A stretch of DNA of 63,226 nt, counting the filler, from Reclinomonas americana ATCC 50394 (Eukaryota): the NCBI GenBank assembly GCA_048213135.1. It is 5 parts of 2 records of this genome, joined end to end, with 100 filler letters (N's around TTAATTAATTAA, not from the genome) between each part and the next. Parts side by side here need not be neighbours in the genome. Positions count along the whole stretch, not along the records: positions 1 to 12,254 come from PS015629.1; 4 more parts are not named here. One strand, written 5' to 3'. Shown here piece after piece: positions 2,148-30,639 of the stretch (positions are counted from its first letter, which is position 1; each line of letters starts with the position of its first letter). The notes beneath the pieces were generated by a model. That model had not been told where the DNA came from, did no database searches, and worked only from the letters and a program-made list of their open reading frames with translations. The position numbers and the translations under genes were made by a program.

Positions 2148-2273
2148 ATGAAGAGAAGCTCGGCGGCGGCTGATCTTCCTGACGATGGAGATGGGTCGGC
2201 GCCGCCTCCACAGCGAGCGAAAAGTAACGCGGTGTGTGCATGCATGCATGCATGTGTGTGTTTGTGTGCGTGT

Positions 2274-2308
<35 letters not shown>

Positions 2309-2370
2309 GTTGTGAGCTTGCGTGTTTGCGTGAGTGTGTTTGTTTGTTTGTGCTCTTAGTGTGGCCACAG

Positions 2371-2402
<32 letters not shown>

Positions 2403-5400
2403 ATGTGTGTGTGTGCATTCCCAACTCTCTCTCATGTGTCTGTTGCACTCTTTTGTGTCCTTTGTGGGTCCATAGCTCTGCATTCTCCCTTCCTCCCCCG
2501 ATGTGTGTGTGCATGTGTGTTTGCGTGTCCGTTCAGTGCTCTCATTCTTCTCTCTTCCCCTGATCTCTCACTCCCCACCTGCCACAGAACTCACTGACCG
2601 TGGAAACGTGCATCGACTTCCACCCGGTCACTGTGGTGGACGTGCCTGTGTTCCGCAAGGACACTGTGAGCGCGCTGGCCCAACGCATTGCCACCAAGTT
2701 GCAAGAGGGGCTGGGCGATGGGCGGTCGGTGCGACTGCTCTCCATGGACCGGCCGGTGTCGGCGCTGCAGCCATACACTGATGGTCGCCGAGTGGCGTCG
2801 CTGTTGAAGGGTGAGAGTGATCGCCGTCAGCGCGTCACTGTCGTCACTGGGAGGGTCAGCGCTGTGGCGCCGCTGGCGGAGATGATGGAGGCTGACGTGC
2901 CGCTTCCCCCGCCAGCCGCCGAAGCTGATGCTCCACCGCCTCTGTCATTAGCAGCAGCCATTTCTGCTCCTGCGTCCCACTCACCATCTGCGTCATTCGC
3001 CGCCGCCGCCGCTGCGGCTGCGGCTGATGGCGATGAGGAAGCTTCACCTCTCCTGCGTTTGTCAGCCGCTGCTGCTCCCGCGTCGCACTCGCCTCTCGCA
3101 TCGGCGTCAGTAGCTGCACCTATTGCCGGGGTTGTGGCTGCCGCCGCTGATGATGATGTTGCCGACGACGACGATGATTATGATGATGATGATGATGACG
3201 AGGAAGAGGAAGAGGATGACGAACAAGTCGATTGTGCTGCCGTCGTTGAAATTGCACCGTCCGCGTCTCCATCGGCCGCTGCGTCGCATTTTCCACCTNN
3301 NNNNNNNNNNNNNNNNNNNNNNNNNNNNNNNNNNNNNNNNNNNNNNNNNNNNNNNNNNNNNNNNNNNNNNNNNNNNNNNNNNNNNNNNNNNNNNNNNNNN
3401 NNNNNNNNNNNNNNNNNNNNNNNNNNNNNNNNNNNNNNNNNNNNNNNNNNNNNNNNNNNNNNNNNNNNNNNNNNNNNNNNNNNNNNNNNNNNNNNNNNNN
3501 NNNNNNNNNNNNNNNNNNNNNNNNNNNNNNNNNNNNNNNNNNNNNNNNNCAAGAAGCCTAGTTTTCCCGAGGGACTATGCTTGCCAGACGCAACGCCGGA
3601 GGTGAGTATCCAGTCAAACTCTCTGCATTTGCTTTTTCCTCACCGTATGTCTGGAGTTAGGAATCTGCGGCGAAGGCGATCAAGAATATCCGCAACGCTC
3701 TGTCACACACCCCTGAGACTGTTCAAGATCGCAAGGACGCGGAAGACAAAATTCGCTCGCCGCTGTATCCGTACATGGGCAATGTCGACAAAATGCTTGC
3801 AAGAGAAGGACATCTGCCTGTGTTCAACCAGCTCCTCGGCGAGCCCGGTGGCCGTGTCAATGGAATTCTGCACCGGCTTCTGCACGATCTATCAGTCGGT
3901 GAAGAGGAGGCCGAGTTGCTGGAGAAGCTCTCTTCTTGCCGAGAAGGTTTGCCTCGCTGAGTCACCCCATGGTTCTTCTCTTCGTTAGCCACCTTATTTT
4001 GCTGTCGTACCCCCACAGAACCTGTCGCCCCACCGCGGCCGGCACCACCGACTCCACTGACGCCCAACAATATCTCGCCGATTGACGCGAGTCCATTCGC
4101 CACTCGACTGCAGCACGTGAAGGAGCTTGTGTCACCGAGCGGTCGACTGGTTCGCGCGCTTTCACGTGACAGCGGAGTACAGCCGTCGCCCGTCATCATG
4201 GTGTTGACTGGAGAATCTGGCTGCGGCAAAACCTTCCTTGCCAGCTTGATTGTCAGAGAGCTGGATCGTGCTTTGCCCACGGCGCTGCAAGTAGAGCTCA
4301 AGGGGAATATTGCGGACAGCCGCATGCATGTCACAGTTGCGCAGCTGCAGTCTGCTTTTTTGTGAGAGGTCTAGTTCTCCCCTTATAACCTCGATTATTT
4401 GCGCAGCCCGTGGATGCTCTGGAAGTCTGCGTGAAATTATTCGGAGCTGCGCAAAGGCCGACCACTCAAGATGACGCGTGCCGCCTTGTGACGGAAGCCA
4501 ATACGGAGCTGAGCAAATACCGCACCGGCGAGGAGGGAAACAAATCGCTCGATGGCTTGCGCCGGAGTGTGCAGTCGTTGATGATCGCCTCAGCTGGCGT
4601 GCTGTTACTCGACAATGCTGCAACAGCAGATCAAGTTCTCAACACTGTTGTGTGCAAGGGTACGTTATCGACTCATTTCGTTCCGTGTAGATACTGGTTG
4701 TGTGTAATCATCATGCTGTCACTTGCTCCTAGATGGTTCGCTTATTGCACCGGTGGTCATCGTGACGACGCGGTGTGACCATGTTGCCTGTGGCATACGG
4801 ACTTTACTACTTCGTCTTCAATCGCGAGTGGAAGTGTTGAGCGAAGCTGTCGGCGATGTGCACCAACAGGACATTGATGAAGTGGTTGACGCTGCCGCGC
4901 CGTATCTAGCGCAATCGGCTGATCCCGACATGCTGGCCAAGACACTGCGAAAAATTCGCAAGGTGCTCCAGAAAATGGAAAGACACGCGGTCCTCATCGG
5001 TGCATGCTACCAGTGCGTGCGGTGATATGCAATCGATGCCTGTACTGCTGTTTATTTTGCTTCTTACTCCTCTCGTCTCCATGCGGTGCAGATGGCTTCA
5101 AAACGTGGATGTGGACATTGTTCTTTCAGCTGACGGAATCAAGTCGAGGATGATTGACCACAGCAAGATGGCCTACGGAGAGTTCTTGGCGCTAAACATT
5201 AGTTCACAAACACTCGAAACTAAGAGTCTCTTGGCACTGCTGGTGGCTTGCCGTGAGATGGGAATGCCAGCGACTGCCTCGTTTCTCAACGTGGCACGGT
5301 GCGTACTTGATGTGCCGCTCGACATTGACACCACTGGCGACCGTGGCGACGTGGTGATGCTTGATCGAGCAGATGTTAGCGAACGACTTGTCGAACTGGC

Positions 5401-6284
5401 TGCTTGCTTGCGCCGCCTTGCGCTGCACGAGCTGGCGACAGAGCGTCGCCGGAAGCTTCAGCTTCCTGACATCCAGCAGCCACGCGTTGAGGAGATGAGC
5501 GAGGAGGAGCTGGCGGCTTGCAATGCACGGGTGGAGCAACTTTCACGACAGCGTCAGTGGTCCAATGGTACGAAGGCCATGCTTGGCGCTGGATTAGTGA
5601 AAGTGTCGGTGCCCGCAGACGGAGAGGTTGGCATGGACTGTGTCGCGCAACTATTGTTCCGTGACAAGCTACCAGAAGGACATTTGATGCTCCGTGTTCA
5701 TCATGATCGGACTGCTCAGTGGGTTGTGGAAACAGCCGGCGCGTCAGTGCAGGCTGCCAAGAGACTGATCGTTCGACTGTTGTGCTGTGCGCTGGTCAGT
5801 GTTGACATGCAATTGGACGCGGGTCGACGGCGGATGATTTCGCACCGCATGTGCATGCTCATGATGGTGAGAGTCTTGTGGCGGCAACTCACCAAGGACG
5901 CATCTCTGTGGGACGGTGCCGATGTTTTCAGTCTGCAGTTACAGTGGCACGCCGTGGAGTGGATTGCTCGGCAGATGACTGTCAGGCACATTACGACAAC
6001 CGGCTTTGAAGGCGTGGTCGCGGTGCAGAGGGTTGCGGCGTATAATCTGCTGTGCAAGATTTGCGCAGATACGAAAGTGTCGCCTCACCCGGCGGTCGAA
6101 CTGTGTCGTCTTCGGTGCCGCGCTCGTGTTCACGAGTTATTACTGTGTCACGACGAAAGTCATCGCGACTGGGAGGCTGTTTGCGGTATGCAACAATCAC
6201 TGCACGACATCAGTCGCGATGCAGACGTATTGGCAACTGTTGACTGCCTGAGGAGTCACACGGAGTTTCTGTACTGGTCGTCAG
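2148..6284 (+). CDS. NLR-like STAND (NB-ARC) NTPase with N-terminal ubiquitin-like domain, acidic linker, candidate HEPN motif and C-terminal helical/TPR-like region; 3' end in N-gap
   Basis: Walker A GESGCGKT at 4210-4233, preceded by [12 protein letters not shown]. Then LQVELKG..PVDALE, Walker [15 protein letters not shown] (~4599-4619), sensor VVIVTTR, LGAGLV and MHD-like LRVHHD (~5699-5707). Beta-grasp pattern in the exon starting at 2588 ([25 protein letters not shown]). RNALSH at 3691-3708. Inferred introns include 2232-2587, 3602-3660, 4336-4406 and 4660-4732, all frame-preserving. Confidence 0.85.
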
Positions 6285-7002
6285 NNNNNNNNNNNNNNNN
6301 NNNNNNNNNNNNNNNNNNNNNNNNNNNNNNNNNNNNNNNNNNNNNNNNNNNNNNNNNNNNNNNNNNNNNNNNNNNNNNNNNNNNNNNNNNNNNNNNNNNN
6401 NNNNNNNNNNNNNNNNNNNNNNNNNNNNNNNNNNNNNNNNNNNNNNNNNNNNNNNNNNNNNNNNNNNNNNNNNNNNNNNNNNNNNNNNNNNNNNNNNNNN
6501 NNNNNNNNNNNNNNNNNNNNNNNNNNNNNNNNNNNNNNNNNNNNNNNNNNNNNNNNNNNNNNNNNNNNNNNNNNNNNNNNNNNNNNNNNNNNNNNNNNNN
6601 NNNNNNNNNNNNNNNNNNNNNNNNNNNNNNNNNNNNNNNNNNNNNNNNNNNNNNNNNNNNNNNNNNNNNNNNNNNNNNNNNNNNNNNNNNNNNNNNNNNN
6701 NNNNNNNNNNNNNNNNNNNNNNNNNNNNNNNNNNNNNNNNNNNNNNNNNNNNNNNNNNNNNNNNNNNNNNNNNNNNNNNNNNNCTTCATTTTGCATTTAT
6801 TTGCACCTCAAATTGGGCAACCTGTCACCTGATCCTGTCATAACATCATGACAGCCTGTATCCGGCACAACTCCGTCAAAAATGGCTGCGTTAAAGTTGG
6901 CGGCGGGAATTGCTGTCCACAGCAATCCCTTGCTTTTCACTCGGGGACACCTCCGAGACAAGGCAACGGTGAAATTAAACCTGTCAGTCCGAAACCCAAA
7001 AT

Positions 7003-7032
7003 TATAAATAGTCCGATCGTCAGAAATCAGTC
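7003..7032 (+). promoter_or_regulatory. Candidate TATA box plus initiator
   Basis: TATAAAT at 7003-7009 and TCAGTC at 7027-7032, with the A 26 nt after the TATA start. Lies about 100 nt upstream of the ATG at 7136. Confidence 0.55.
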
Positions 7033-7135
7033 ACACCACAGTTTTCTTCTGCAATTTGTGAGCGCTGAACAGGCCACATCACACACTCTTTCTCTCTCCC
7101 TTCCCCCCCTCCCCCCTAATCACCTAATCAACCTA

Positions 7136-8365
7136 ATGTCTTCGCGCGACCGCAACCTCTCGTCGCCACCCATGGCCGCCGTGGAACAGTGGAAGCAGAC
7201 GTACCTGCAGCCGTTCCTGCAAAAACGTTTCATCCCTGAAGAAATGACCCACGACAAGCTGCAAGAGGCCATGGAGTGGTACGATGGCCTCCACAAGCTG
7301 GAGCGGAGACCGCTGTTTGCCACGGTGAGAGAGAGAGTGTGTGTGCGCGCGCGCGTTCCAATGTGTATTTTTGCTCATGCATGCATGCAGGGTGGCAAGC
7401 GCGTAAAGAAGGGCACCAAGGTCAAGATGCCGCGTAACCTGCTGCGCCCCTACATCAACCTCCTGCTCAACGACGAGGAGGTCGGCATCCCCAGGCCGTC
7501 GGGTGTGGAGGCGTGGCAGCTGCCGGCGTCCATCTGGGACGAGCTGGTGCATGTGCTGAACTACTCTGACTGCCAGCGCTTCTACGACTGTGTGGAGGTG
7601 AGTCGCGCGAGAGTGTCTTGTGTATGTCGCCCACCCGCAGTGTCTCACGCCGCTTCCCTGCTTGGTGTTCTGCAGTGCGTCGAGATTGAAATGTTTGCGC
7701 GCAATCACCCGCTGAATGCCGGCCTGAAGCTGCGAGAACGGAGACCGCCGCAGCGCACGACCAAGCGCGGTGGTTGCCGACAGCAGCAGCGACAGGCGCA
7801 GCAGCAGCAGCCACAGCCGGCACAGCAGCACTATGTCGCCGACATGACGGGCGCGTACAGTGTGCAGCCGGCGGTCATGTTCCCGCTGCCGTACCTGCCA
7901 CCGCTGTCGTCGTTCCTGCCCATGGCCGCCGTCAAGTCGCTGCCGGTGCTGCCGATGGTGGAGCAGAGCAGCGCGTGCGCGGCCGAGGCGCCGATGATGA
8001 TAATGATGCCCGAGGTCAAGCAAGACTCGCCTCCGCCGATCGTGACGCCTGCTGCCGCTGCCTTCCCGTACCCCGTCTCGGCGGCGCCGTTTGTGAATAC
8101 CACGTCTGTGCACGAGTACCCGTCGTCGCCGGCGGGTGTGTGCATGTCGTTTGGCGACGCGCCCGTCGTGCACAGCTCGTTTGACATTCCCGCGCACGAC
8201 TCGGAAGACGAATCGCTCGACTTTGTCGGTGGTGGCGATTTTGACGAGCCTATGACGGTCGGCTTCCCCGGCTACTACGCGAGCTCTGGTCTGGAGGCGG
8301 CTCCGATGTGGGGCCATGTACAGCAACAACAACAGCAGTCTTCCTTTATGTTTTGGGAGCAATAG
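7136..8365 (+). CDS. Hypothetical transcription-factor-like protein (unrecognised N-terminal domain; Q/P-rich and acidic tail)
   Basis: GC3-rich ORF with two in-frame GT-AG introns (after PLFAT and after YDCVE). Basic patches KRVKKGTKVK and RERRPPQRTTKR, poly-Q, and an acidic/aromatic C-terminus. TAG at 8363-8365. Confidence 0.7.
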   Translation: MSSRDRNLSSPPMAAVEQWKQTYLQPFLQKRFIPEEMTHDKLQEAMEWYDGLHKLERRPLFATVRERVCVRARVPMCIFAHACMQGGKRVKKGTKVKMPRNLLRPYINLLLNDEEVGIPRPSGVEAWQLPASIWDELVHVLNYSDCQRFYDCVEVSRARVSCVCRPPAVSHAASLLGVLQCVEIEMFARNHPLNAGLKLRERRPPQRTTKRGGCRQQQRQAQQQQPQPAQQHYVADMTGAYSVQPAVMFPLPYLPPLSSFLPMAAVKSLPVLPMVEQSSACAAEAPMMIMMPEVKQDSPPPIVTPAAAAFPYPVSAAPFVNTTSVHEYPSSPAGVCMSFGDAPVVHSSFDIPAHDSEDESLDFVGGGDFDEPMTVGFPGYYASSGLEAAPMWGHVQQQQQQSSFMFWEQ

Positions 8366-12254: not shown

Positions 12255-12354
12255 NNNNNNNNNNNNNNNNNNNNNNNNNNNNNNNNNNNNNNNNNNNNTT
12301 AATTAATTAANNNNNNNNNNNNNNNNNNNNNNNNNNNNNNNNNNNNNNNNNNNN
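12255..12354. other. 100-nt gap spacer containing a six-frame stop linker; identical spacers at 21872-21971, 28301-28400 and 53255-53354
   Basis: 44 N + TTAATTAATTAA + 44 N, the same at all four sites. Genes (GAR protein, ankyrin, TMEM260) appear to continue across them. Confidence 0.9.
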
Positions 12355-21871: not shown

Positions 21872-24206
21872 NNNNNNNNNNNNNNNNNNNNNNNNNNNNN
21901 NNNNNNNNNNNNNNNTTAATTAATTAANNNNNNNNNNNNNNNNNNNNNNNNNNNNNNNNNNNNNNNNNNNNGTTAGCCTGTGTTGGCGAGAGAAATGGGC
22001 GCGGCCTACTTCACAGGTAGGCAGAGAATAGAGCATAAGACTGAGGAACTGAGTGCGTGAGAGAGATGGAACGCAATTGTGGAGAAGGTATAAGAGGCAG
22101 GAGAACGAAGAGAGAGGGAGAGAGAGAAGCAAGTGACTGTGTTCTCTGTACGCGAGTGAGCAAGAGAGTTAACAGACTGCATGAGGAATGATGAGCAGCA
22201 TGCCTTGAGAAGAGAAGCAGCTGATGAGTTGATTGTGACGGCCGTCAAGCGGCTGTCATGAGGTGCGGAGCGACAGATACAGGTGAAGAGTTGTGAAGAG
22301 GAACGGACAGCATGAGATGCAGTTGATGAGTTGATTGTGACGGCCGCGAAGCGGCTGTCATGAAGCACGGAGCGACAGATACAGGTGAAGAGTTGTGAAG
22401 AGGAACGGACAGCATGAGATGCAGTTGATGAGTTGAAAGTGACAGCGGCTGTCACGTAGCATAAAGCGACATCCTGCACTGATGGGCAGAGGAAGGAGAA
22501 CGAGACTGAGGAATGCAACTGTGGTGAAGGATAAAATGAAGGAGAATGAGAGACTGAGAGATAAGAAGGAATGCAACTGTGGAGAATGGAGAGAGACAAG
22601 AGGGCAGGAAAGGGGGTGTGTTTTGCTGTGAGCGAGAGAGAGAGAGAGAGATAGAGAAGAAAGAGAGAGAGAGAGAGCTGCATGCGAGAGATGAGAGGAG
22701 ATGTCTCGTGAGTGACGAGGAAGAGCGCAATTATGATCGATCCCAGTCGTGCCTCAGTCTCGTAGTGTTTCTTCTCACGCTCCCCTCGCCACTTCTTTGC
22801 TGATGCGGATGGCGTCCTCCATATCTTCTCCTTATTCTCCTCCTCCTCGCCTGTCGTTCACCCATGCTTCATCTCACAGCGCGTCGCTCGCGAGTGGTCC
22901 GATCGCGCACACCAGCTGTCGAGTGTGGTCGAGGCCGAGACGCAGGTGTGGAAATCAGTTTCATCTTCCTTGCCTCGTCTGCCGTCACCAATCATCCTCC
23001 TTTCGCCGTGCAGGCCGCTCTCGCAGCACAGATGCAAGCCAAGGACCTGCTACGGCGGTGTGAGGAACTGGAGCGCGAAAACTCGCGATTGCGTGCCGAG
23101 CGCGACATGTTCAAGCACGAAACCGGGCAAATGTCGCTGACGTTGGATACGCTGCGGGTGATTCCAGGCAGACACCTACCCACCCACTTGCTTCCCCCAT
23201 GTCTCACTATTGGTGGACACAGGATGAATTCGCTCGCGGTCGCGACACATCGGGCATCACGAGGAAAGAGGTGGAGGAGGTGCGCTCGCACGCAGAAGAA
23301 TTGCAACGCAGAGTGCGCGAGCTGCAAAAGAAGAACCAGACACTGTCATTGGAGAACACGCTGGCGGTGGAGCAGTTGGCTCACATGAGACTGGCGGTGC
23401 GTTCGTGTGTTTTGTCTGTGATGGGAGAGGTGGTGTGCGCGTGTCACTGACAAGAACTGGGTGCAGTTGATCAACGCTGGCATCTCGGAGCTGCCGATGG
23501 CCGGTGGTGCCAGTGTGCCACCGACGACGGCGACGTCAATGGGCCAGAATGGAGCAGTCACCGCCGACAGCGGTCGCATTGTGCGTTTGACAGCTTTTTG
23601 CAGTCGTAGTGCCTTACTCACGCTTCTCCTGTGCGTGTGCAGTCACCAACCCATGCGACAGCCGCAGCACCTCCGTCACACTCTGCCGCCGCGCCAACGG
23701 CTGTCACTCACATTGGCCTGGCGCAAACGCAGGCTGGCGTAAGGAGAGCATCGCCGGCGCGAGGAGGAGGAGGAGGACGGCCAGCGTCGGCGTCGGCTGC
23801 GCTGCCGGGCTCCGGCCTATCGGCTTCGATGCCGGCTGCCGCCTCGTCCGCCTCGTCGTCCTCGGGCCAAGTGATCACCGATCGGATACTGCGCTCGCTC
23901 ACGCGACCGAACCCGTCGAATGCTGCACGATTGGTCGACGTGCTCGTGAACGATCTGAAGGCTGTGTTTGAGGAGCGTGGCATCCAGTTGCCGATGAAGA
24001 AGACGCAGGATTTCCAGTATCAGCTGGGTGGCAAGAGGGTGCACTTGAATGTGTTGGGCGGGAAACTCGTGGGTGCGTCTGTATGCTCACTGCAGTTGTC
24101 ACCCTTGTCCTCAAGCGTGTGCTCACACAATCTATTCTCGGTGGCAGTGCGCGCTGGTGGTGGCTACCAAGATTTTCTGGAGTACTTGGACCGCGCACGT
24201 CTTTAG
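21311..24206 (+). CDS. Coiled-coil protein with C-terminal GAS2/GAR (microtubule-binding) domain; start uncertain (21311 or 21449)
   Basis: Heptad exons (LLRRCEELERENSRLRAE, AEELQRRVRELQKKNQTL), an S/A-rich linker, then YQLGGKRVHLNVLGGKLV|VRAGGGYQDFLEYLDR, which fits the GAR VRVGGGW motif. TAG at 24204-24206. Confidence 0.75.
22217..22450. repeat. 102-bp tandem repeat, about 2.3 copies, intronic
   Basis: GCAG(C/T)TGATGAGTTG starts at 22217, 22319 and 22421, with nearly identical sequence between. Confidence 0.9.
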
Positions 24207-26768: not shown

Positions 26769-28747
26769 AATGCTAGTTTCTTGTACAACTCGCCCCGCCG
26801 GGCGGCGTATTTGCAAACAGACAAGAAAGTGAGAGTGAGTGAGTGTGTGTGTGAGAGAGAGAGAGAGAGAAGGAAAGAGAGCGAGTTGACAGTTAAGAGA
26901 GAATGAGTGTCAAGGAATGCTTGGCCGCCGTACGTTTTCGAGTTGAGCGAGGCAGTCGCAAGGTGGGGCAAGGGGGAACGTGTAGATGACGTATCATTTG
27001 CCCTGCCAGCCAGCGTATTTTGCGCGAGAGAGAGAAGGTATAGATAAGAAGAGCACGGCAGCAGAGAATGGAAGAAAGGCAGGAGTCAACGAGCCAGGTG
27101 GAAGAGGCAGAGTAACACGGACGTATGAGCAAAGGGTAAGGAAGGAGAGAGAGGAAGTCAGGAAAGAAGTGCTACGCGACAGAGAAAGAGAAACGCAGGA
27201 CAGCAAACTCAAGGTGGAGAAGAGTGGGAAAGGAGCAGCAGCAAGAGTAAGTGAGGAGACAAAGAGCTATACAAGATTGAAAGAGCCAGCCAGCAATGCA
27301 AAAGCAACAAGATGGTGTGACAATGACAACGCCCACAATCCGCATGCCAGCACACACCTGAGCGCAGCAGCATGTCCACAATCTGTGCATTGCCACAATT
27401 GCACGCCAAGTGCAATGGCGTGTCGTGCGAGTCGTTCTCCAGCGACACGGTCACCGAGTGCTTCCGATGATAACATAGCAACAGGGCAACCATACTGAAT
27501 AAACGTCAGCATCAGGAAGCAGAGCGGTGAGCACAGCTCGCGCATCGCAACTCTGCTCGTCCATAGTCGGCGGCAATGTGCAGCAGCGTGTTTCCGCGGA
27601 TACATTCGTGCACGCTGAGCAATACCTCAACCTGCACGCATGCCAACACATGTCAATGAACCTGAACTCCAACAGCCACCAACAAATTCTCGATCGAGAC
27701 GAAACCGCAGGAAAGTCGGTCGATGCTGGCGTGCCGTCCTCACCCTCTTCGCCCGACTCGAGCATGATTGGCGGGTACTTCTCGACCTCTGCGGCGCAGG
27801 TGCGAGTGAGCTACACATTGAAGAGAATGAAGGAAATGCACGACAGCGCGTGACCTTTCAGCGCAATGCCCACGGCATCCACATCGCCATTTCGGCATAG
27901 GAGATGTGCGGCAGTCATCAGCGTGTCGTCGGCAATCAGAGGATTGGCGCCGCGCATCAGCAGCAACCTGGCGTGGAGACAAAGGTGAGAGACGATGGTG
28001 TGACGCAAAAGACGTTGAGGAAGAAGATAACTTTGAAACGGTGGCATGCTCGCCTACAGCCGCCCACGTCAGTGGGGTGAGTCCATTGGCATTGCGCGAG
28101 TCGATCTTGTGTGCGCAAGTGAGATAAGTGAATAGCCTTGCATAACAGAGATACGTGACTCACCTCGGCGCCGTTGCTGAGCAGCACACGAACGTGATCC
28201 AAGGCACCCGCAAACGCCGCATAGTGCAACGGGGTCTCTCCCTCCTCCGTGCGCCTGCCGGCCCATGGTCACGGTCAGCCCTTCCTCCATATGTGCACGG
28301 NNNNNNNNNNNNNNNNNNNNNNNNNNNNNNNNNNNNNNNNNNNNTTAATTAATTAANNNNNNNNNNNNNNNNNNNNNNNNNNNNNNNNNNNNNNNNNNNN
28401 CGCTCAGTGAAGCCAGTCAACGACAGCAGTGAGACAGCTGCTAGCAAGCCTGAAAACTGTGACTGAGTGAGTGACTGAGAGAGATGAGCAATCAGTGAAT
28501 GCATTCAGTGACATGAGAGTGTGAGAACGCCACTAGCTTACGCGGAGTGCACATGCACATCATCCTCCACGAGAGACAACACACGTGCACATATGTGCGC
28601 GAGTAAACAGAGAGAGAGAGTCTCACACCTCACAGGCGCAGTGTGCAACAGCTCACGCAGCGCAGCCAGCAGTTGCGCAGCATCTCGTCTCAACAAGCAG
28701 TCCCACACAAGCTCGCCAATCGCGTCATCGCCATCGTCATCGCTCAT
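24325..28747 (-). CDS. Ankyrin-repeat protein (many repeats)
   Basis: Repeated motifs GETPLHYAAFAG, GLTPLTWAA, GNTLLHIAADYG, DTPLHLACNCG, GMTAVHIVCQRG, GCTPVHYAA, GWTPLHYASYRG, GLTALHLAC, GRTPLHVAAGCN and GQTIVHLAGKRG. First exon MSDDDGDD at 28747 lies across a spacer. Confidence 0.9.
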
Positions 28748-28849: not shown

Positions 28850-30639
28850 ATGAGTGGCAAGGCGTCTGTGTTGAACGGGACTGTGTGTGTGGCCATTGGT
28901 CAGCGCAGTGAGCTGCTTGGTGAGGATAAAGAATGCAAGTTGTTGCTCTCTCTTCCGCGATCACTCTCGTGTGCGATGTTGGCCTCATGTGTGCACACTC
29001 TCTGCTCACGTGTGCACACTTTCCGCTCACTTGTGCACACTTTCCGCACACTTTCTGCACGCAATTCTCTCAGTCAGCATCCATTGTCACTCATGCTCAC
29101 TCATGTCGCGCTTCTGCTCTCTTGTGCTCACTCATAACCACGCAGGCACACTCCTTACACACTCTCCGCTCACTTGTGCACACTTTCCGCACACTTCCTG
29201 CACGCAATTCTCTCAGTCAGCATCAATTGTCACTCATTCTTACTCATGTCGCGCTCTTGCTCTCTTGTGCTCACTCAAGTCCACCTGTAACCATGCAAGC
29301 ACACTCTTTACACACTCTCCGCTCACTTGTGCACACTTTCCGCACACTTCCTGCACTCAATTCTCTCAGTCAGCATCCATTGTCACTCATTCTTACTCAT
29401 GTCGCGCTTTTGCTCCCTCGTGCTCACTCATAACCACTCACAACCACGCATTCACACTACTTACTCGTTTAACACTCACTTGCGCACACTTTCAGCACAC
29501 TTCACGCTCACATTCCCTCTATTCTCTCAGTCGATCATGCACTTCTTCTCACCCGCTCTTGCGCTCTTCTGGTACATTCAAAGCCGCGCAGGCACTCCTT
29601 ACCTTCCGCGCCATCTATTCTCTCCCTCCACGCCATTCCCTTTCCTCACTCGCTTCCCATGTGGCCACAGCTCGACAACTGGTGATTCCGAATCACAGTG
29701 CGGCACAGCGCGTGGAGGCCGACACACGACGCATTCTGCGATCACCAGCCGTGCAGCGCATGCCTGCCGGGTCGCGAGTGGTGGTGCGCGATCCCATGAC
29801 GGTGAGTCTGAGGTGACGCTTGTCTCTCCCCCCACAATGTTGCTCACCCCGTTGCAGGCCCTCCGCGCATTCATCCGCATGGGCGAGCATCAGATGGTGT
29901 TTGTCGTGTGGGCCGAAGAGAGCACATCGGTGAGAGCGGGTGGTCATTCTGCTGCGCGCAACAGTCGCCCAGTTGTCTCACGTGCAGCGCGCAGTTGAAT
30001 GACATGTCGGCGGTGGTGGAGGTCCTCGTGCATCACGTACACAGGGCGGTCAAGCCGGACAAGAGCGGCACGGTGTCTGCAGAGGCTGTCACCACGCACA
30101 TGGAGTCGACGATGGTTCGGGCTTCATCTTCGTTCTTCACGTGTGCTTCCGCTCCTGCTGCTGACTTGACCATGCGCACAAAGGCAAAGCTCCGCGAGGG
30201 CAAGTACCGCTCGGAGATCGCCGCCGTGCAGGAGCAGATCGACGAAGTGCGCAGTGTGCTTCTCCAGAGCATCGGTACGCGCTCTAATTCTCACTTGTCA
30301 CGCTCCTCGTGCGATTTTGTTGACTCGCTTGCGCGGCAGAGAGCGCACTGGAACGTGGCGATCGCGTCGGCCGTCTCACCGAATCCACCGCTCTCCTCAC
30401 CAACCAGGCCAACACATTCAAGAAGCAATCAGACCAAGTACGACAGACGTTCTGCTCAAGGGTCAGTCTATTGCATCTCCGCACATCGCTTTCTCGTTTC
30501 GCCACGCGCCCACTCCCTCCTTCTCTTCACGCGCACACAGCATCGCAAGCTCATAATCATCCTCTCCATCATCCTGCTCGTGCTCATTGGTGGCGGCGTC
30601 GTGCTGGCCCTCTGGCTCACCCATGTAATCAACTTTTGA
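28850..30639 (+). CDS. Longin R-SNARE, VAMP7-like (paralogue 1)
   Basis: Longin-like N-terminus MSGKASVLNGTVCVAIGQRSELL|ARQLV..RVEADTRRIL. SNARE EIAAVQEQIDEVRSVLLQSI|ESALERGDRVGRLTESTALLTNQANTF with zero-layer Arg. C-terminal TMD LIIILSIILLVLIGGGVVLALWL. Confidence 0.85.
29023..29500. repeat. Tandem repeat with 143-153 bp units in intron 1 of longin 1
   Basis: CCGCTCACTTGTGCACACTTTCCGCACACTT starts at 29023, 29166 and 29319, plus a degenerate fourth copy. Confidence 0.85.

Follow-up and report, generated by a model that had tools for sequence, protein, structure and literature searches.

We analysed a stretch of DNA of 63,226 nt from the protist Reclinomonas americana ATCC 50394 (hereafter the window), which contains 6,509 N in 21 gaps, the filler between its joined parts included, and has a GC content of 0.561. 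The subject of this report is a predicted gene at 2148-6284, whose product is probably a highly divergent NTPase of the STAND (signal transduction ATPases with numerous domains) class and of the NB-ARC (AP-ATPase) type, apparently restricted to its lineage. A preliminary description of the locus had proposed a protein resembling the nucleotide-binding leucine-rich repeat (NLR) receptors, composed of a ubiquitin-like (Ubl) domain, a putative HEPN ribonuclease (RNase), an NB-ARC NTPase and helical repeats. Every peptide string quoted in that description was recovered from the translated exons at the position it had been assigned.

Gene model and surroundings

Translation and reading of the sequence revealed successive open segments in changing frames on the + strand of 2148-6284, separated by short GT...AG introns. 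Judging from the sequence, this segment is likely to be one spliced nuclear gene of a eukaryote, predicted to be composed of the following parts.

2148..2231, + strand: putative exon 1 (assignment uncertain), 28 codons from an in-frame ATG (MKRSS...), with a GTGTGT donor at 2232
2232..2587, + strand: putative intron 1, 356 nt, rich in a (GT)n microsatellite, with all three frames closed
2588..3298, + strand: exon 2, about 90 amino acids (aa) of alternating strand and helix followed by about 145 aa of low complexity, open into a gap
3299..3549: assembly gap inside the gene, 251 N, the place of the N-terminal half of any domain ending in exon 4
3551..3601, + strand: what remains of exon 3, 17 codons up to a GTGAGT donor
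3661..3946, + strand: exon 4, a 95-aa all-helical module with RNALSH at 3691-3708, the putative HEPN catalytic helix
4019..4361, + strand: exon 5 (3' boundary uncertain), a Pro-rich linker, the pre-P-loop helix FATR and Walker A
4407..4659, + strand: exon 6, with the Walker B string at 4602-4637
4733..5012, + strand: exon 7, with VIVTTR at 4756-4773, a motif of the RNBS-B / sensor-1 type
5092..6284, + strand: exon 8, 397 aa, mostly helical, with LGAGLV at 5582-5599 and LRVHHD at 5690-5707, open into a gap
6285..6783: assembly gap of 499 N, in which the C-terminus of the gene lies

The GT-AG introns within this multi-exon gene measure 45-79 nt. Exon 1 can be joined in phase 0 to exon 2 at a CAG acceptor at 2587, and four of the five internal junctions (E3/E4, E4/E5, E6/E7 and E7/E8, named after the exons they join) are in phase, with introns of 59, 72, 73 and 79 nt and donors GTGAGT, GTTTGC, GTACGT and GTGCGT, respectively. 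The remaining junction, E5/E6, counts against the model, as use of its best donor (GTGAGA at 4362) would put exon 6 out of frame, and the frame stays open only with weaker donors at 4330 or 4336. This clash (4330-4406) may stem from one wrong base in the assembly, from an unusual or weak donor, or from decay of the gene. One frame stays open through the 49 bases past the gap at 6285-6783 until a stop codon at 6830-6832, but this frame is not transferable across the gap. Besides the motifs placed above, the translated exons contain the 13-aa string that includes RNALSH (3670-3708), FATR (4096-4107), GESGCGKT (4210-4233), VELKG (4291-4305), PVDALE (4407-4424) and the Walker B string, which is 12 aa long (4602-4637).

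Continuity across the gap at 3299-3549 is not visible, and the gap might separate two genes, one for a small alpha/beta protein with an acidic tail and the other a STAND gene starting inside the gap. In keeping with this, the last 145 aa or so of exon 2 are of low complexity, a feature typical of protein tails; this part is rich in Ala, Pro and Ser and contains poly-Asp/Glu, with an acidic run at 3149-3223. Since the length of the gap is nominal, agreement of frame across it means nothing for either arrangement. However, exon 2 reads through 237 codons to the edge of the gap without a stop, and what follows the gap has no ATG and keeps an open frame from base one as far as a good donor. Both sides lie on the same strand, and a promoter would find room only inside about 250 nt. 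We regard a division into two genes as unlikely, although by no means negligible, and retain the single spliced gene as the working model.

Bacterial contamination was ruled out by the spliceosomal-type introns and by the exon GC content, which at 0.576 is near that of the window. Other open reading frames (ORFs) of the window match acetate kinase, GNAT acetyltransferase, Ras, protein kinase and FkbM methyltransferase in Pfam, and the presence of eukaryotic-type ORFs around the gene, together with the matching GC content, argues for a resident nuclear gene.

Upstream of the gene, an ORF fragment at 947-1597 on the - strand matches acetate kinase (PF00871, E = 1.7e-14, profile positions 49-139). 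The downstream neighbour, at 6848-8365 on the + strand, is an open frame of 505 codons that contains a stretch rich in Gln, matches no Pfam family at E ≤ 0.01 and is probably itself interrupted by introns. Long (GT)n/(CA)n microsatellites are present at 2232-2587 and 42640-42820, and (GA)n runs are frequent throughout the window. Near-identical peptide blocks occur in two or three copies in the translated frames of 28875-29998 (+ strand) and 40131-40904 (both strands), a pattern suggestive of DNA repeated in tandem, some 150-200 nt at a time. At 12255-12354, 21872-21971, 28301-28400 and 53255-53354, paired runs of 44 N stand exactly 12 bases apart; these are the filler between the joined parts.

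The NTPase core

The predicted product carries, in collinear order, a pre-P-loop helix (FATR), Walker A, Walker B (hhhhDN) and hhhTTR. Its Walker A, GESGCGKT, has the form G-x4-GK[ST] and is preceded by the F-x-x-R helix, FATR; its Walker B has the form hhhhD[DN] and is followed within 15-40 aa by hhhT[TS]R, the two being read as LLLDNA...VIVTTR across the E6/E7 splice. Pfam was scored exon by exon only, with the NTPase domain spread over four exons. On exon 5, matches were obtained to AAA_22 (23.9 bits, E = 5.8e-5, cut-off 27), AAA_16 (23.0 bits, E = 1.3e-4, cut-off 32.6), NPHP3_N (21.2 bits, E = 3.7e-4, cut-off 24.8), NB-ARC (PF00931; 18.0 bits, E = 1.9e-3, cut-off 23.5) and NACHT (16.6 bits, E = 7.1e-3, cut-off 26.7). 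PADLOC and NCBIfam yielded generic P-loop matches only on this exon.

Because the NTPase domain is split over four exons, we constructed reference profiles of our own from 30 NB-ARC and 30 NACHT loci of cyanobacterial genomes, each cut to span from 45 aa ahead of Walker A to 330 aa beyond it. Twenty-nine NB-ARC sequences (from 53 ORFs) and 25 NACHT sequences passing the same filter were kept, and the computationally spliced product was scored with all filters of the hidden Markov model (HMM) search switched off. The NB-ARC HMM gave 10.0 bits, with the P-loop, Walker B and TTR aligned in order; the Walker B string was paired with vLlvlDdvesieql, and VVIVTTR with kvLlTtR of the profile. This score was reached by 0 of 1000 full shuffles (maximum 5.9 bits) and by 0 of 1000 shuffles that preserved GESGCGKT (maximum 7.3 bits). 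The NACHT HMM gave 1.5 bits on the same product, a value reached by 175 of 1000 P-loop-preserving shuffles. When alignments were compared by hhalign, the product matched the NB-ARC alignment with a probability of 78.0% and a score of 45.1, FATR being paired with FvGR and P-loop with P-loop, and the NACHT alignment with 75.7% and 45.5. With a pre-built template, the real sequence attained 74.0% and 44.5, versus at most 24.2% and 34.3 for 40 P-loop-preserving shuffles.

Several results weigh against this assignment. No Pfam family reached its gathering score on any exon, and exons 6, 7 and 8 were free of any STAND family at E ≤ 1. On our NB-ARC HMM, the median score of the cyanobacterial NACHT proteins is itself 11.4 bits (n = 25), and hhalign does not separate NB-ARC (78.0%) from NACHT (75.7%). 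The preliminary description had likened the Walker B region to actinobacterial AfsR-type proteins, but a tblastn search of plasmids with exons 6 and 7 retrieved no AfsR-type protein, only chance matches with E values of 2-9. The ARC/winged-helix part escaped detection as well: hhalign placed the winged helix of the template elsewhere than at LRVHHD, and a single-sequence AlphaFold2 model of exon 8 had an unusable fold, with a predicted local distance difference test (pLDDT) score of 39.1. In that model, residues 158-213 of exon 8 form a helix-strand-helix-strand-strand succession. Along the product, the proposed MHD motif (VHHD) lies about 290 aa past TTR. Exon 8 is possibly an ARC/winged-helix region plus a helical sensor.

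As NACHT proteins match the score of the query on the NB-ARC HMM, this profile says "STAND", and the choice of clade therefore rests mostly on motifs. Here the two reference sets differ: 25 of the 29 NB-ARC sequences, but none of the 25 NACHT sequences, have a Walker B with hhhT[TS]R 15-40 aa further on, and hhhDN[AVLI] is found in 8 of 29 versus 0 of 25. The query has both patterns. Thus, of the complete STAND module that had been described, the P-loop, Walker B and hhhTTR hold up as NB-ARC-type features beyond what shuffled sequences produce, whereas the ARC and winged-helix portion was not detected.

The modules upstream of the NTPase

The module that precedes the NTPase, made up of whatever the gap at 3299-3549 contains and of exons 3 and 4, had been taken for a HEPN ribonuclease. 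If it were one, ligand-driven oligomerization of the STAND protein would pair two HEPN domains, and the RNase so activated would kill or arrest the infected cell. Exon 4 does stand in the effector position, and HEPN-STAND fusions are known in bacteria and cnidarians. Its RNALSH obeys the rule set out in the motif description of PMC3710099, namely R, then N, D or H, a spacer and H. The extended form of this motif, h..hR[NDH]x3-5H, arose in 1.6% of exon-4 shuffles and 10.8% of whole-protein shuffles, and it had 0 occurrences in 60 bacterial STAND loci, whose ORFs of 250 aa or more amount to 50,119 residues. This pattern was, however, chosen after the query was known, and it is therefore biased toward the HEPN reading. 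The simpler forms are common: R-x4-6-H occurs 8 times in the 1035 visible aa versus 5.6 expected from shuffles, and one or more copies of R[NHD]x3-5H turn up in 49% of whole-protein shuffles and 10.6% of exon-4 shuffles.

Searches beyond the motif gave divided results. In the ESM Atlas, Csm6 HEPN clusters ranked first for exon 4 (0.86 and 0.85), followed by Cas_Csm6_HEPN (0.83) and then by HEPN_Apea and Ymh; the HEPN neighbours span 0.86-0.78, and 8 of the 10 best family-bearing matches belong to the same family or clan as the top one. All of these scores nevertheless fall below the bar of 0.9, 126 of 256 features are shared, and the recognition value of 2052 is below 2300, which grades the result as "lead only". 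A HEPN_Apea HMM made from six of six loci, several of whose members have motifs that read RN-x3-H, gave 8.1 bits on exon 4, a score reached by 0 of 1000 full shuffles. Yet the match is confined to the motif helix, the score is reached by 20 of 1000 motif-preserving shuffles, and hhalign gave 2.4%. With a Csm6-HEPN HMM (9 loci), exon 4 was unreported even with filters off, and hhalign gave 0.13%. A PF05168 HMM from 28 of 30 loci, two having been dropped for internal stops, gave -0.6 bits, a value reached by 187 of 1000 shuffles. No HEPN family of Pfam or NCBIfam matched exon 4 at E ≤ 1, no PDB sequence matched it at E ≤ 10, and none of 8 candidate homologues of near length that were scored reached E ≤ 10.

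The structural model of exon 4 (single-sequence AlphaFold2) consists of five helices, in which R11-L14 close the first helix (residues 3-14) and H16 lies in a loop, an arrangement that agrees with the account of the motif in PMC3710099. The model is nonetheless of low confidence (pLDDT 54.5), and Foldseek found 0 matches to it in the PDB at E ≤ 0.001, the best having E = 3.2. A HepT HEPN toxin chain at rank 10 of this search (E = 6.2, template modelling score 0.31) was rejected as evidence. A HEPN domain is an up-down bundle of four helices in which the motif closes helix 3; helices 1-2 of such a domain, with the acidic Ex3[KR] site in helix 2, would fall in the gap at 3299-3549, in agreement with the caveat of the preliminary description that part of the putative domain is missing from the assembly. 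Because half of it lies there, the HEPN assignment cannot be confirmed. The RNase claim thus stands as far as RNALSH fits the published motif rule, but no HEPN profile matched beyond the motif; the apparent HEPN signal is the motif plus a little of its helix. The call is only a lead, and we consider a HEPN ribonuclease possible but unlikely; a non-catalytic helical adaptor or another effector is at least as likely an identity for the exon 4 module.

Further upstream, the first 101 aa of exon 2 matched no Pfam family at E ≤ 0.01, and the whole exon matched no Ubl family at E ≤ 1, the only matches being acidic low-complexity ones below cut-off. The label "Ubl" for its first approximately 90 aa is unverified.

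The C-terminal region and comparison with known systems

Exon 8 had no relative at E ≤ 0.001 among 1,835,955,588 representative proteins in an exhaustive phmmer search, and word-index searches among proteins of near and greater length retrieved none either. Searches of PDB sequences with exons 8 and 7 produced nothing meaningful (best E = 0.23 and 0.54, respectively), and the ESM Atlas offered no usable match for exon 8. A second copy of the exons was absent from the window, as judged by tblastn of the exons and an HMM scan of six frames. With exon 8 lacking relatives and no paralogue in the window, the predicted gene is an orphan at the sequence level. The part following the NTPase had been described as similar to tetratricopeptide repeats (TPR). 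That description found no backing, since no TPR family was present at E ≤ 1 in Pfam and comparison of exon 8 with itself by blastp and hhalign disclosed no internal repeat; AlphaFold predicted helices only, with low confidence.

The lack of relatives for exon 8, the frame clash at the best E5/E6 donor, the place of AAA_22, which is not a STAND family, at the top of the exon 5 list (where all families fall below cut-off), and the NCBIfam matches to IstB, ABC and Orc1/Cdc6-type P-loops at E values of about 0.01 would also suit a generic P-loop NTPase (AAA+/ORC-like or kinase-like) with chance Walker B- and TTR-like strings, or a decaying pseudogene, but we find this quite improbable: the similarity to NB-ARC extends beyond the P-loop and is reached by 0 of 1000 and 0 of 40 P-loop-preserving shuffles, the FxxR helix, Walker A, hhhhDN and hhhTTR have NB-ARC order and spacing, and the long open exons with phase-compatible splice sites speak against advanced decay.

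For a protein of the NB-ARC-like STAND type, established knowledge of STAND and NLR proteins suggests a working scheme. The NTPase would act as a nucleotide-dependent switch, and the all-helical C-terminal region would sense a trigger, leading to oligomerization. The oligomer would then gather the N-terminal modules, that is, the small alpha/beta domain, the long disordered linker rich in Ala, Pro and acidic residues, and the all-helical module that lies partly in the gap. Cell-autonomous immunity repeatedly makes use of STAND or NLR proteins equipped with nuclease effectors. If the exon 4 module is a HEPN domain, the proposed proximity-induced pairing of HEPN domains on an oligomerized STAND scaffold agrees with what is established for HEPN enzymes. 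It is rather unlikely, taken as a whole, that the gene encodes a protist NLR-like receptor with a HEPN effector, a switch of NB-ARC rather than NACHT type, an N-terminal Ubl and a sensor resembling nothing collected. As the evidence stands, the locus amounts to a fast-evolving orphan gene of NB-ARC-like type in a draft assembly with gaps, a finding that helps annotation and is not surprising.

The system closest in the NTPase core is the NB-ARC/AP-ATPase clade (PF00931), which we take to comprise Apaf-1/CED-4, plant R proteins and bacterial NB-ARC-TPR/WD40 proteins. Unlike these, the query stays below the Pfam cut-off on every exon, has a spacing of about 110 aa between Walker A and Walker B, lacks a detectable ARC1/ARC2, and shows no TPR, WD40 or leucine-rich repeat signal in its C-terminal region. 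It shares with them the F-x-x-R helix, Walker A, hhhhD[DN] and, about 30 aa on, hhhT[TS]R, in the same order, as well as the layout of N-terminal module, NTPase and C-terminal helical region, and its similarity to the profile is weak but non-random.

As for the upstream module, the HEPN motif given in PMC3710099 is R-x4-6-H, where the residue following R is usually N, D or H; the remainder of the domain is poorly conserved. Table 1 of the same paper (Anantharaman et al. 2013) reports bacterial fusions of HEPN to a STAND ATPase, TPR and S1, with Npun_F6454, MED222_16016 and Desac_1927 as examples of the HEPN-STAND ATPase-TPR(-S1) arrangement. For bacterial NACHT proteins, HEPN is listed as one of the enzymatic effectors (bioRxiv 10.1101/2022.07.19.500537), and the occurrence of HEPN both with inactive STAND modules and in metazoan TRADD-N proteins is noted in PMC8195603. 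If exon 4 is HEPN, the query has the same order as the bacterial HEPN-STAND-TPR and HEPN-NACHT proteins, namely RNase, STAND NTPase and helical sensor. It differs in being eukaryotic and intron-bearing, with a putative HEPN and no TPR detected, the comparison with these proteins being by description only. Vertebrate sacsin unites Ubl and HEPN in one polypeptide, according to the architectures given in PMC3710099, but without a STAND NTPase, and in the query both Ubl and HEPN are putative.

Among eukaryotes, HEPN-STAND proteins are documented in several cnidarians, where the combination of a DZIP3-like HEPN with NACHT is given as the commonest non-leucine-rich-repeat one, with 17-83 proteins per anthozoan species (PMC8260672); the HEPN-NACHT fusion is likewise recorded in corals (PMC10236652). 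The preliminary description had presented the four-part architecture as unlike that of any described protist system; as a claim of novelty this is too strong, as HEPN-STAND is in print for bacteria (PMC3710099) and cnidarians (PMC8260672). In the literature searches made, no paper was found in which HEPN is joined to NB-ARC in a protist. The cnidarian proteins have NACHT and a HEPN_DZIP3 that Pfam recognizes, whereas the query has NB-ARC-like motifs and no Pfam HEPN in exon 4; what they would share is a putative HEPN RNase N-terminal to the STAND part of a eukaryotic protein. Confirmation of HEPN would extend the design to a unicellular eukaryote, with an NB-ARC chassis, and would provide a tractable test, in which RNase activity should require the P-loop as well as the R and the H. 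If the whole receptor reading were true, the gene would represent a third independent appearance of the HEPN-STAND design, beside those of bacteria and cnidarians.

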